Shown piece by piece: positions 49,001 to 53,906 of a stretch of DNA of 64,000 nucleotides. The stretch covers positions 6,262,001 through 6,326,000 of the forward strand of contig CM035356.1 in the NCBI GenBank assembly GCA_020137815.1. Reading direction: 5' to 3'. Position 1 is the stretch's first letter. The number at the start of each line of letters is the position of its first letter. The position numbers were made by a program, and so were the translations under genes. The notes under the pieces are model-generated. The model saw nothing but the letters and a program-made list of their open reading frames with translations, did not search any database and was not told the DNA's origin. The DNA comes from Hormiphora californensis (Eukaryota; Animalia; Ctenophora).

Positions 49001-52000
49001 TAAAGGGTCGACCAAGACGTAAAGAAAATTTTTCAGGTACCCAACAATTAAAGTGAGTTGAAATTACTTCCATGAGTGGAATTTAGAAACTTACAATAAC
49101 TTCAGTGACGCCGTTCACCACATTCTGCTTGAACTGAGGTATAACCCGGGTCTGTAGATGAGACCGCAGTGTCGCTACCGCTTTAAATCTCTCCATGTCT
49201 GATCGAGATGGGACGTAACCACGTACTTGAGAGTCTTGTTTCCTAGGCAGATTAACAGACCTGGAGAGAGAGGGGGGGGTCAGTGGAGCCAGGGGAGAGG
49301 CCAGGGGTTGTTATGTTCTGACCCTCCTTTAAATTTGTGATGTGCGGTGGAACAGGGTCGAAAAAGGCAAGAAAGGGGTTAGTGTAGTAGCCGGGGGGGG
49401 GGGGGGGGGTGTCAGTCAGTTATAGACGGGTCTATCTACTTCTAGCCGTGTATGAGTTGATTTATTCACCTCTATGATAGTACAAAAGCTGCCAGACAGC
49501 GAAGAGGGTTTTACTCACTGGAGTCTAAGAAGGACAAATAAAGAGATGTAATGGGAAAGAAGGGGGTTCTAGGGAAGTTCCAGGTATCACTTATTCATAA
49601 GAGAAGGATGTTTCGGTCGCGATCCGGGGGAGAGAGAGGGAGAGAGAGAGAGAGAGAGAGAGAGAGAGAGAGAGAGAGAGAGAGAGAGAGAGAGAGAGAG
49701 AGAGATAGATAGATAGATAGATAGATAGAGAGAGAGAGAGAGAGAGAGAGAGAGAGAGAGAGAGAGAGAGAGAGAGAGAGAGAGAGAGAGAGAGAGAGAG
49801 AGAGAGAGAGAGAGAACTGTGATTCTCTAAGGAACACCTTAAAGACTAATGACGAGGTCCTGCCAGCTGCACTGTTTGTGTGCCTAAATACAAATGGAGT
49901 CTACACACTCTCTCCTAAAGGCATTACTTTTACCCCTTTGTTAAAGATAAAGATTAGGGTTTAGGTGTGAAATAAATAGATGACAAAATGACAAAAACGG
50001 GAGAAAAATGAAAAATACACTCAAAACAAACCTAAGTTTAGGCATTGTAAAAGCTGTTGAATGTTGTTGTTCATCTCGTGCGGCGCTCTCCCTTCTCAGC
50101 TGGTTCATTACTGGAGCAAAGTTCCTCATCACCGCGTTATCCCTCTGTGGCGGGACAGGCGATGTAGCAGTAGCTGATACTGTTGTCATGGTTTCAGTGG
50201 TTAAGGAGGTGGAGTCTGTGGTATCCATAACGACCTGGAGTAATATTTGTTAGGGGAACTTGTACATGTAGGTAGTAGGTGGTATGTTTAGTGACACCTG
50301 TGCAAGATCGAAATCGAGCAGAGACTGAAATCGAGCTCGAGGGGACAGGTATCAATGGTACCAAGTGGTACGTTGGGATCTTATTGGCAGGGTTTAAACG
50401 CTATTCAGTACGAAGTACGAACTAACTAAGAACAAACTAAGTACGAACTATCAAATGTCGGACAGAACGCGGCTGTTACCTGTTTCCTGCTCCGCTCCAC
50501 GGCAGCAGAAGGTCCCCTCTTGAGGAAGAACTCTAAACTTCCCTTGTTGTCACCCTCCGCTGGCAAACTCCCCTTACTGTCACCCTCAGCTGGAAAACTC
50601 CCCTTGTCACCCTCCGCTGGAAAACTCCCCTTACTGTCACCCTCGGCTGATAAACTCCCCTTGGAGTTCTCTGTCTGGACCACCACCTTTTTGGGCATCT
50701 TAAAGGTAGCCGGTGCACCCTGTTTGAACACTGCTGGTATGGCAACTTGGCGGGTGGGTGTTGCGGGGCGGGTGGGTGTTGCTGGGCGGGTGGGGGGTGT
50801 TGCTGGGCGGGTGGGGGGTGTTGCTGCTGGGCGGTTAGAGGCATCATCCAGGGGATCTTTCTGTGTGACCCCTGCTGTCGTTGATGATGGTTGTCGTTTC
50901 CGGAGGGTACTCAGAGCACTTGTAGGACTGGGAAGGGAGCCGGTAGAGGTTCGTTTAGTGGGTGATTCAGGGACAGAAGGTGCAGGTGGTGGAACTTTAA
51001 TCGCTGCAGCAGGTGCAGATGTTGGTGTTGGTTTGGGTGATAATGCCCTTATCTTGCTATGATCAACTCCACTACTGTTTCTCAGTCGGGCTTCAAGACT
51101 GGATAACACATTTAGAAGACCTGAATTGAAGGGTTACCATTAACTTAAGGGAAGAAATGAAGAACAGAGAGGGTGTGGATGAAGATCAAAGGCTCAGCCG
51201 CTAGACATACACCAGGTGTACCTTGGTAACAACTTGAGTTACCATGACAACTATACAACAACTTGCGTTACCATAGCAACTACAACAACAACAAGGTACC
51301 TGGTTGCTGGTCTAAGGTGCCACCACTTCGTTTATCCTCTCCCATTCCGGCTCTACAGCTGTCCTCAGCGCCTCCAAAGTGGGAGAGAAGGGTCTTTAGA
51401 AAGGACAGGCATAACTTAACATTACTGAAGGAAAAGAGTGGGTGATTATTGATATCAGTATCTAGCAGGGGTGGGTGATTATCTAGCGGGATGGCAGTCG
51501 AATGAAAATATTACTCAATCTGGAAACGTAAAGTGGTCAATCCCTTTACAGAATATATAGGGATGGAAGATATCCTAGCGCTATAAAACTGACCTGTTTA
51601 CAAGATCTCCAGCGCTATAAAACTGACCTGTTTACAAGATCTCCAGCGCTATAAAACTGACCTGTTTACAAGATCTCCAGCGCTATAAAACTGACCTGTT
51701 TACAAGATCTCCAGCGCTATAAAACTGACCTGTTTACAAGATCTCCAGCGCTATAAAACTGACCTGTTTACAAGATCTCCAGCGCTATAAAACTGACCTG
51801 TTTACAAGATCTCCAGCGCTATAAAACTGACCTGTTTACAAGATCTCCAGCGCTATAAAACTGACCTGTTTACAAGATCTCCAGCGCTATAAAACTGACC
51901 TGTTTACAAGATCTCCAGCGCTATAAAACTGACCTGTTTACAAGATCTCCAGCGCTATAAAACTGACCTGTTTACAAGATCTCCAGCGCTATAAAACTGA

Positions 52001-53906
52001 CCTGTTTACAAGATCTCCAGCGCTATAAAACTGACCTGTTTACAAGATCTCCAGCGCTATAAAACTGACCTGTTTACAAGATCTCCAGCGCTATAAAACT
52101 GACCTGTTTACAAGATCTCCAGCGCTATAAAACTGACCTGTTTACAAGATCTCCAGCGCTATAAAACTGACCTGTTTACAAGATCTCCAGCGCTATAAAA
52201 CTGACCTGTTTACAAGATCTCCAGCGCTATAAAACTGACCTGTTTACAAGATCTCCAGCGCTATAAAACTGACCTGTTTACAAGATCTCCAGCGCTATAA
52301 AACTGACCTGTTTACAAGATCTCCAGCGCTATAAAACTGACCTGTTTACAAGATCTCCAGCGCTATAAAACTGACCTGTTTACAAGATCTCCAGCGCTAT
52401 AAAACTGACCTGTTTACAAGATCTCCAGCGCTATAAAACTGACCTGTTTACAAGATCTCCAGCGCTATAAAACTGACCTGTTTACAAGATCTCCAGCGCT
52501 ATAAAACTGACCTGTTTACAAGATCTCCAGCGCTATAAAACTGACCTGTTTACAAGATCTCCAGCGCTATAAAACTGACCTGTTTACAAGATCTCCAGCG
52601 CTATAAAACTGACCTGTTTACAAGATCTCCAGCGCTATAAAACTGACCTGTTTACAAGATCTCCAGCGCTATAAAACTGACCTGTTTACAAGATCTCCAG
52701 CGCTATAAAACTGACCTGTTTACAAGATCTCCAGCGCTATAAAACTGACCTGTTTACAAGATCTCCAGCGCTATAAAACTGACCTGTTTACAAGATCTCC
52801 AGCGCTATAAAACTGACCTGTTTACAAGATCTCCAGCGCTATAAAACTGACCTGTTTACAAGATCTCCAGCGCTATAAAACTGACCTGTTTACAAGATCT
52901 CCAGCGCTATAAAACTGACCTGTTTACAAGATCTCCAGCGCTATAAAACTGACCTGTTTACAAGATCTCCAGCGCTATAAAACTGACCTGTTTACAAGAT
53001 CTCCAGCGCTATAAAACTGACCTGTTTACAAGATCTCCAGCGCTATAAAACTGACCTGTTTACAAGATCTCCAGCGCTATAAAACTGACCTGTTTACAAG
53101 ATCTCCAGCGCTATAAAACTGACCTGTTTACAAGATCTCCAGCGCTATAAAACTGACCTGTTTACAAGATCTCCAGCGCTATAAAACTGACCTGTTTACA
53201 AGATCTCCAGCGCTATAAAACTGACCTGTTTACAAGATCTCCAGCAGAGTCTAGTGAAAGACCATCACATCCTCCTTTCCTCAGAGCTTCCAAACTTATC
53301 CTGATGTTCTCATATCTGCAGAGAATGAACACACCGAGTTGAAGAAGGGTGATATTAAAGTTGAAAGGTCTAGATTACCAGAGGGAAGAGGGAGACAACT
53401 ACAATTATTTCAACCCCATTTATTAAATGATTCAATGATTCAAATGATTTATTATTTAACCTGTGAAATGTTAGCCGGGGCTCTTCCCGGTACATAATCT
53501 TCCGTTTTGTGAGGGCCATTGTAAGCTCTGGCAGGAGCACTCCGTCCCCTAGATCTGCTATCAGATCCGTGACAATGTAATCGGAATCATTGGACGATAA
53601 CTTTCCCTCTACCTGTGTAATGAGAGCATTGGTATAGCTGTTAGAGGCAAGATTATTCATTGGATACGAAGTCACCCCTATTACGCTACGGGAGCTTGCG
53701 ATAGGGGTAATTTCATTACCAAGGTTATTCATAACTGTACTAATGTACTATAACTGTACTGACCCATTCGGTAAAAGACGCTACTTGGACGCTTTGCCAC
53801 AGTTCACTATTTTTCGTCTCCTTAGCACCAGCCCCGACAGCTGCAGTACCAACGAGTGTGATATCTGATTGTTGCTCTTGTAGAGGGTCCAGAGCCACCC
53901 GTTCGT
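46062..53906 (-). CDS. Multi-exon protein with an N-terminal calponin-homology (filamin/actinin CH1-type) domain, Pro-rich repeats and a C-terminal KKRVRF motif; first exon not identified
   Basis: Exons 53764-53906 (WQSVQVASFTEW), 53461-53612 (VTDLIADLGDGVLL), 53226-53315 (YENIRISLEAL..AGDLVN), 51300-51424 (SNVKLCLSFLKTLLSHF), 50480-51120, 50032-50234, 49095-49260, about 48874-48915, about 48594-48696, about 48156-48221, 46751-47803, about 46515-46605, about 46272-46376 and 46062-46169. Phases around 48.6-48.9 kb are not fully resolved. Confidence 0.7.
51577..53245 (-). repeat. Minisatellite of about 49 apparently identical 34-bp units filling an intron of the CH-domain gene
   Basis: Plus-strand unit CTATAAAACTGACCTGTTTACAAGATCTCCAGCG; minus strand CGCTGGAGATCTTGTAAACAG|GTCAGTTTTATAG. 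There are no spacers. Confidence 0.98.

Follow-up and report, generated by a model that had tools for sequence, protein, structure and literature searches.

Tandem repeats that straddle an exon–intron boundary are known from amphioxus and from humans. In amphioxus, the accounts of the so-called mirages in Adh3, the globin genes BflGb6 and BflGb9, troponin C and PGBD5 describe boundary-spanning, length-unstable tandem repeats that leave splicing undisturbed (PMC3087553, PMC3902484). In humans, the report on intron 7 of F7 describes a 37-bp variable number tandem repeat (VNTR) with preference for the first donor, and sets beside it similar repeats in CBS intron 13, 6-16 intron 2, LMNB2 and PDGF intron 4; splicing of CBS and 6-16 draws on two donors besides the first, that of LMNB2 and PDGF on none besides it (PMC1557585). 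Here we describe a 34-bp array in an intron of a CH-domain gene of the ctenophore Hormiphora californensis, found in a stretch of 64,000 nucleotides (hereafter the window; assembly GCA_020137815.1, contig CM035356.1, positions 6,262,001 to 6,326,000). It is very probably a splice-donor-spanning minisatellite of the mirage type, likely of different length in different animals. Splicing likely joins its first donor to the real acceptor, which lies past the array at a distance of 152 bases, and the predicted protein is then unchanged. No ctenophore report of such a repeat was found in a search of the full-text literature, the coverage of which leaves out most subscription journals.

The array runs on the minus strand from window position 53245 to 51577 as 49 perfect copies of the unit plus 3 nt (Table 1), for which Tandem Repeats Finder (TRF) returns 49.4 copies with 99% matches. 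It makes up 1649 of the 1801 intron bases; the other 152 are unique and carry the acceptor at 51425. Each 34-nt unit consists of the final 20 nt of the upstream exon (exon C, 53315-53226), a 13-nt donor segment ending in TATAG, and one C, and the donor CAG/GTCAGT (the slash marks the splice point) is accordingly present as one authentic site and 48 identical extra copies. Reading on beyond the first donor gives R-S-V-L-stop, with the TAG in frame 12 nt downstream. Splicing into a TATAG and out again at the GT that follows would insert 21 nt in frame, encoding SAGDLVN with no stop. The first-pass annotation of this DNA had reported the 49-copy array, the composition of the unit and its TATAG ending, a stop-free 21-nt segment copying the last residues of the exon, and an in-frame TAG on direct use of a distal donor, all of which the window sequence bears out. 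None of the 14-mers of the unit occurs elsewhere within the window, and JGI metagenome contigs contained neither a related locus nor a copy of the unit.

The intron lies between exons C and D of the gene, within the part that encodes the first CH domain (CH1). Exon B gives a weak match to Pfam CH (E 0.049), and a protein search with this exon alone found no match; a profile built from exon B and four homologous open reading frames led to a 1194-aa protein of Mnemiopsis leidyi that matches exons B, C, D and E as well as a second CH-like region further down. The first CH domain of this orthologue matches Pfam CH (PF00307) with an E value of 8.6e-13 and aligns with CH1 of an alpha-actinin-like protein, plectin and filamin among PDB structures. 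The earlier claim of a CH domain is thereby confirmed, as far as sequence comparison goes, and the domain is of the CH1 type. Pfam searches with exon D and with the exon at 49101-49259 gave weak, unrelated matches only, and matches to two repetitive proteins (P0013 and P0014) were set aside as chance. The alignment with the orthologue fixes the boundary between exon C and the intron, and the exon C–D junction falls in a conserved CH1 motif, which has the sequence DIVDGNLKL in the structure of the alpha-actinin-like protein. When exons C and D are joined directly, the product aligns to the Mnemiopsis protein with 139 bits and no gap at the junction, whereas a product with one or three extra heptads aligns with a gap and scores 125 and 120 bits, respectively.

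The strength of the repeated splice signals was judged against 42 manually modelled introns from five genes in the window, 39 of these introns being kept for scoring with position weight matrices (PWMs); the introns after 57420 and 56127 were dropped for uncertain frames, and that after 63201 because it is without GT. The PP4R3-like gene among these models stays open across 13 exons. The repeated donor is strong, with a score of 10.2 (9.4 when left out of training) that exceeds 34 of the 39 authentic donors. The four AGs of the unit stand at the other extreme: their scores of -4.0 to -7.1 lie below all 39 modelled acceptors, for which leave-one-out scores range from 2.5 to 17.5 (8.5 for the array intron's own acceptor), and place them at the 62nd to 74th percentile among 855 ordinary intronic AGs. 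Their AG-free zones measure 5–13 nt against at least 16 in every authentic acceptor. The unit lacks TAAY, which precedes 28 of the 39 authentic acceptors, and no YTRAY branch match was found in it. The authentic acceptors end in CAG in 37 cases, in TAG once and in AAG once. By PWM score, AG-free zone and TAAY, therefore, the array is a series of strong donors with poor acceptors. The first-pass annotation had offered as one option a bank of decoy donors that must be silenced; the decoys fit the observed donor strength, but active silencing need not be invoked, since the human F7 repeat is on record as favouring its first donor (PMC1557585). Structural masking of the decoys is not supported, the predicted RNA folding of exon C with the first units being unremarkable (z -0.29).

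Sequencing reads place the array beyond the assembly. Five of nine listed runs were examined as assembled contigs on the two array flanks, each flank taken with about two units. In run X1 the repeat forms a 64-nt contig with a depth of 2282 and zero differences, which is the closed cycle expected of a perfect 34-bp repeat assembled with 31-letter words; the flanks total 57–68, giving a repeat-to-flank ratio of 34–40. Run X5, from another sample and another study, has repeat contigs at depths of 4800–5524 and flank contigs at 510–1202, a ratio of 4–11 that does not overlap that of X1. Since the repeat is present in read-derived contigs of both studies, the array is real and no assembly artefact. 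Its length probably differs between samples, as estimated from contig depth in two runs, and it would then be a VNTR. The count of 49 is an assembly figure: on both chromosomes it would predict a ratio of 48–49, and the lower ratio in X1, which suggests a mean of 34–40 copies per allele, means that a second allele may be shorter or that depth is biased. The terminal unit in X5 carries two substitutions that remove its TATAG, so the edge is divergent where the inner copies, 49 of them perfect in the window, are homogenised. The suggestion of a very recent expansion fits both the perfect copies and the difference in depth between samples.

The contigs from these two runs show two further features. 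X1 has two haplotypes at 50930-51403, indicating high heterozygosity: 11 substitutions and one 3-nt deletion separate them within 163 nt of exon E, and more indels do so in and near exon D. In X5, a 72-nt contig (placed at 51585-51629 and also at 53183-53227; depth 171, about 14% of the flank) has a different repeat directly ahead of the unit's AG/GTCAG; this repeat is pyrimidine-rich and, read on the sense strand, contains CTAAC twice. If it sits in the array intron, its quality as an acceptor would be well above that of every candidate in the window allele, but it may come from another locus or a chimera.

Several steps can be envisioned by which such an array would arise and be tolerated. 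The first duplication may have come from slippage between two short stretches of similar sequence, one at the end of the exon and the other 34 nt inside the intron; the edge bases of the array and the exon end share 3 nt of exact overlap and are similar at about 11 of 13 positions as judged by eye. Ordinary minisatellite turnover would then account for expansion and homogenisation. The first donor would be committed as it is transcribed, in the 5′-to-3′ direction, as in human F7. A transcript that has a premature stop with later junctions downstream is degraded, and because the TAG lies 12 nt past the first donor, distal-donor transcripts would be removed by nonsense-mediated decay. The extra donors are likely ignored and the array is most likely inert; this reading includes some slight use of donors two or three, such as is reported for CBS and 6-16. 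In human cells, the upstream 5′ splice site is described as staying tethered to polymerase II (PMC8316553).

The locus shares with the described systems a boundary-spanning first unit, an intact repeated splice signal, length instability (a rough estimate from two runs) and homogenised inner copies. In the amphioxus mirages, too, the first copy straddles the exon–intron boundary and the signal is repeated intact in an array of unstable length; the host here is a ctenophore, however, with 49 perfect copies against 3–6 in BflGb6, and normal splicing was checked by reverse transcription PCR (RT-PCR) in amphioxus where it is inferred from sequence here (PMC3087553, PMC3902484). In the F7 group the first unit likewise spans the donor and is followed by identical pseudo-donors, with polymorphic length in F7, and donor use is described as confined to the first one to three sites. 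That group differs in copy number (5–9 in F7 and 25 pseudo-sites in 6-16), in the exon bases contributed to each unit (4 in F7 against 20 here), and in that the ctenophore unit also has an in-frame AG (PMC1557585). A more distant relative is the intron gain described for tandem duplication of an AG/GT proto-splice site (PMC2891723), where duplicated AG/GT units are likewise raw material for new exon–intron structure; the ctenophore duplication spans an existing donor, and a new intron or exon is not shown.

A number of points weigh against this interpretation. First-donor preference has been shown in mammalian cells and not in ctenophores, and the Mnemiopsis orthologue is a single gene model that may miss isoforms. 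The PWMs were built on 39 hand-made introns, only three junctions of which are seen in RNA, and the unit does contain a minimal YTNAY branch match about 25 nt ahead of a CAG/GT. Copy number can be read only roughly from the depth of contigs; X5 is possibly a pool, and X1 possibly the run from which the window itself derives. Lastly, no RNA contig across exons C and D was found among the examined runs, where contigs were placed by their flanks and a joint over the whole intron would not be visible as such, and use of the first donor is in this sense inferred. Run X7, not on record as RNA, was treated as RNA-type from its spliced pieces (depth 2–3), which join an upstream exon to A, B (donor 53461) to C, and D to E. 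The piece with exon D begins 42 nt within that exon, at 51382, and leaves the C–D junction uncovered; this absence neither supports nor refutes any reading. Runs X9 (one 36-letter match, less than 90% alike) and X8 (one 31-letter match) are not informative.

The alternative that survives best, itself improbable, is that copy number tunes the output of the gene, longer alleles giving more distal-donor transcripts that would acquire the premature stop and be degraded. The 48 decoys do equal the real donor in strength, every decoy product includes the in-frame TAG, copy number seems to differ several-fold between samples, and in CBS and 6-16 splicing does reach the second and third donors (PMC1557585). 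However, F7 is reported to use its most upstream site only (PMC1557585), the amphioxus mirages are described as leaving splicing undisturbed (PMC3087553, PMC3902484), and if the nearest decoys alone compete, 5 and 49 copies would be equivalent.

The array had also been proposed as a combinatorial microexon or recursive-splicing cassette; both are formally possible, and the weak acceptors and the failure of the recursive motif leave them unsupported. As a microexon cassette, TATAG acceptors and the next donors would add (SAGDLVN)n to CH1. The segment of 21 nt is indeed frame-preserving and stop-free, TATAG is preceded by a TNA at a distance of about 17 nt, and a TAG ending does occur in one of the 39 modelled acceptors. 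The TATAG nonetheless scores -4.1, with an AG-free zone of 8 nt and a pyrimidine fraction of 0.47 (at least 0.53 in authentic acceptors), and the terminal unit in X5 lacks the AG. The in-frame repeat of exon residues is there because the exon end is duplicated, and it is unsurprising: among 14,364 simulated duplications around the 38 other donors of the window, 54% produced an in-frame AG pseudo-exon of at least 9 nt and 24% one with an in-frame YAG (stops not checked). Regulated fly microexons are described as having long AG-free zones, long pyrimidine tracts and CUAAY branch points, none of which the unit has, and the origin of the eMIC-bearing Srrm234, and with it the eMIC programme, is placed in bilaterian ancestors (PMC8797185). 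The orthologue model, moreover, contains no insert. We therefore regard a microexon cassette as very unlikely, and give equally little credence to a working, copy-number-polymorphic microexon bank, in which a real share of transcripts would carry one or more SAGDLVN repeats in a DIVDGN-type CH1 motif, the mix being set by allele length, outside the bilaterian eMIC system.

Recursive splicing, a stepwise removal of the intron at CAG/GT junctions that would leave a final mRNA identical to that of direct splicing, is slightly less probable again. Intronic YAG/GT junctions are shared with described recursive sites, which small and medium human introns also hold (PMC10156609), and a branch-like TTTAT match lies upstream; the ctenophore sites, on the other hand, are copies of the exon's own donor without a pyrimidine tract, and the unit fails the minimal motif Y5+N0-4YAGGT used in that study (PMC10156609). 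The CAG itself scores -4.0, with an AG-free zone of 13 nt and a pyrimidine fraction of 0.41; YAG/GT is a common donor form, found at 12 of the 38 other donors in the window, and the intron is just 1.8 kb. That the array is an assembly artefact has next to no probability, for although perfect identity across the copies and the shortfall of depth in X1 would suit it, the closed X1 contig at about 40 times the flank depth and the repeat in the separate X5 study largely refute it.

Donor duplication is not confined to this intron. In a test for 12-letter matches applied to donors, acceptors and intron positions, 5 of the 38 other donors were duplicated within 120 nt (after 3761, 18693, 38868, 62340 and 62911) and none of the 39 acceptors was; at intron positions in general the test is positive in 4.8% (p 0.035), a background that falls to 2.8% with those introns left out (p 0.004). 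The excess is modest, since positions 15–100 nt into introns give 2–4 matches of 34–38, partly from the same arrays, and two of the five donors sit in a gene with an uncertain model. The hosts are PP4R3-like, ankyrin/coiled-coil, RNA-binding and unnamed genes. Elsewhere, a tandem repeat at an intron 3′ end (674-735, minus strand) makes a second copy of a TTTCAG acceptor, 29 nt upstream of the acceptor in the model.

The exons upstream of CH1 encode an EF-hand, and these and the CH-domain exons may be one gene; the model is without at least one exon, at about 48695-48591. In keeping with a ctenophore host, a single-exon gene nearby encodes a product that shares 51% identity with a protein of Bolinopsis microptera and 94% with an entry in EukProt. 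Within introns of the EF-hand/CH model, two open frames at 54410-55330 (minus strand) have hydrophobic, membrane-protein-like translations, possibly a nested gene; the 151-nt intron between exons A and B holds a short high-copy interspersed element (53656-53722, a depth spike in X1 and X5) with a similar stretch near 47880; and a tandem repeat of pyrimidine-rich, TTAAT-bearing units (53917-54090, minus strand) reaches the exon A acceptor. Further off, long frames at 9334-14057 (minus), 15352-16206 (plus) and 27953-29449 (minus) resemble, by eye, non-LTR (long terminal repeat) retrotransposon proteins of endonuclease/reverse transcriptase kind, and a single open frame of 1876 codons (21535-27165, minus) has N-terminal ankyrin-like repeats and long coiled coils, with small exons continuing to 17060.

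Table 1. Window coordinates of the array, its splice sites, the host-gene exons and other donor-spanning repeats
Feature	Position	Strand	Remarks
34-bp minisatellite	51577..53245	-	49 perfect copies + 3 nt; first copy straddles exon C/intron boundary; also repeat contigs in runs X1 and X5
Authentic (first) donor CAG/GTCAGT	53220..53228	-	Leave-one-out PWM score 9.4; direct splice colinear with orthologue; predicted to be used
48 identical decoy donors, 34-nt spacing	51588..53194	-	Using any one brings in-frame TAG into transcript
First of 48 formal 21-nt pseudo-exons (SAGDLVN)	53192..53212	-	In frame; TATAG acceptor -4.1, AG-free zone 8 nt
Unique 3′ intron part and authentic acceptor	51425..51576	-	Acceptor leave-one-out score 8.5
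Exon A	53764..53906	-	Holds predicted first CH1 helix; open frame in model; 5′ junction to exon ending near 54287 in X7
Exon B	53461..53612	-	CH1 middle part; donor at 53461 from X7; four homologous open reading frames diverge after same residue
Exon C	53226..53315	-	90 nt, phase 2 end; CH1 residues YENIRIS...SAGDLVN; 60% identity to Mnemiopsis orthologue; 5′ junction in RNA-type X7 (9-letter loose end)
Exon D	51300..51424	-	Last CH1 helix (NVKLCLSFLKTLLSHF); 78% identity to orthologue over 18 aa; D-to-E splice in X7
Exon E	50480..51120	-	Mostly low-complexity linker past CH1
Donor-spanning tandem repeat, 39-bp unit	3543-3772	-	
Donor-spanning tandem repeat, 50-bp unit	18617-18717	-	
Donor-spanning tandem repeat, 36-bp unit	38838-39074	+	Unit a multiple of three
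Donor-spanning tandem repeat, 10-bp unit	62336-62399	+	
Donor-spanning tandem repeat, 39-bp unit	62884-62979	+	Unit a multiple of three

Overall, the array is most likely an ordinary thing, a large and clean case of a kind of repeat already described in amphioxus and in humans. If heptad inserts did turn out to be present in the mRNA, it would be a minisatellite making microexons directly. The modest excess of duplicated donors in this window (5 of 38, against 0 of 39 acceptors) deserves genome-wide attention, and because the array seems to occur in both shorter and longer alleles, the locus offers a natural test of first-donor preference in ctenophores.

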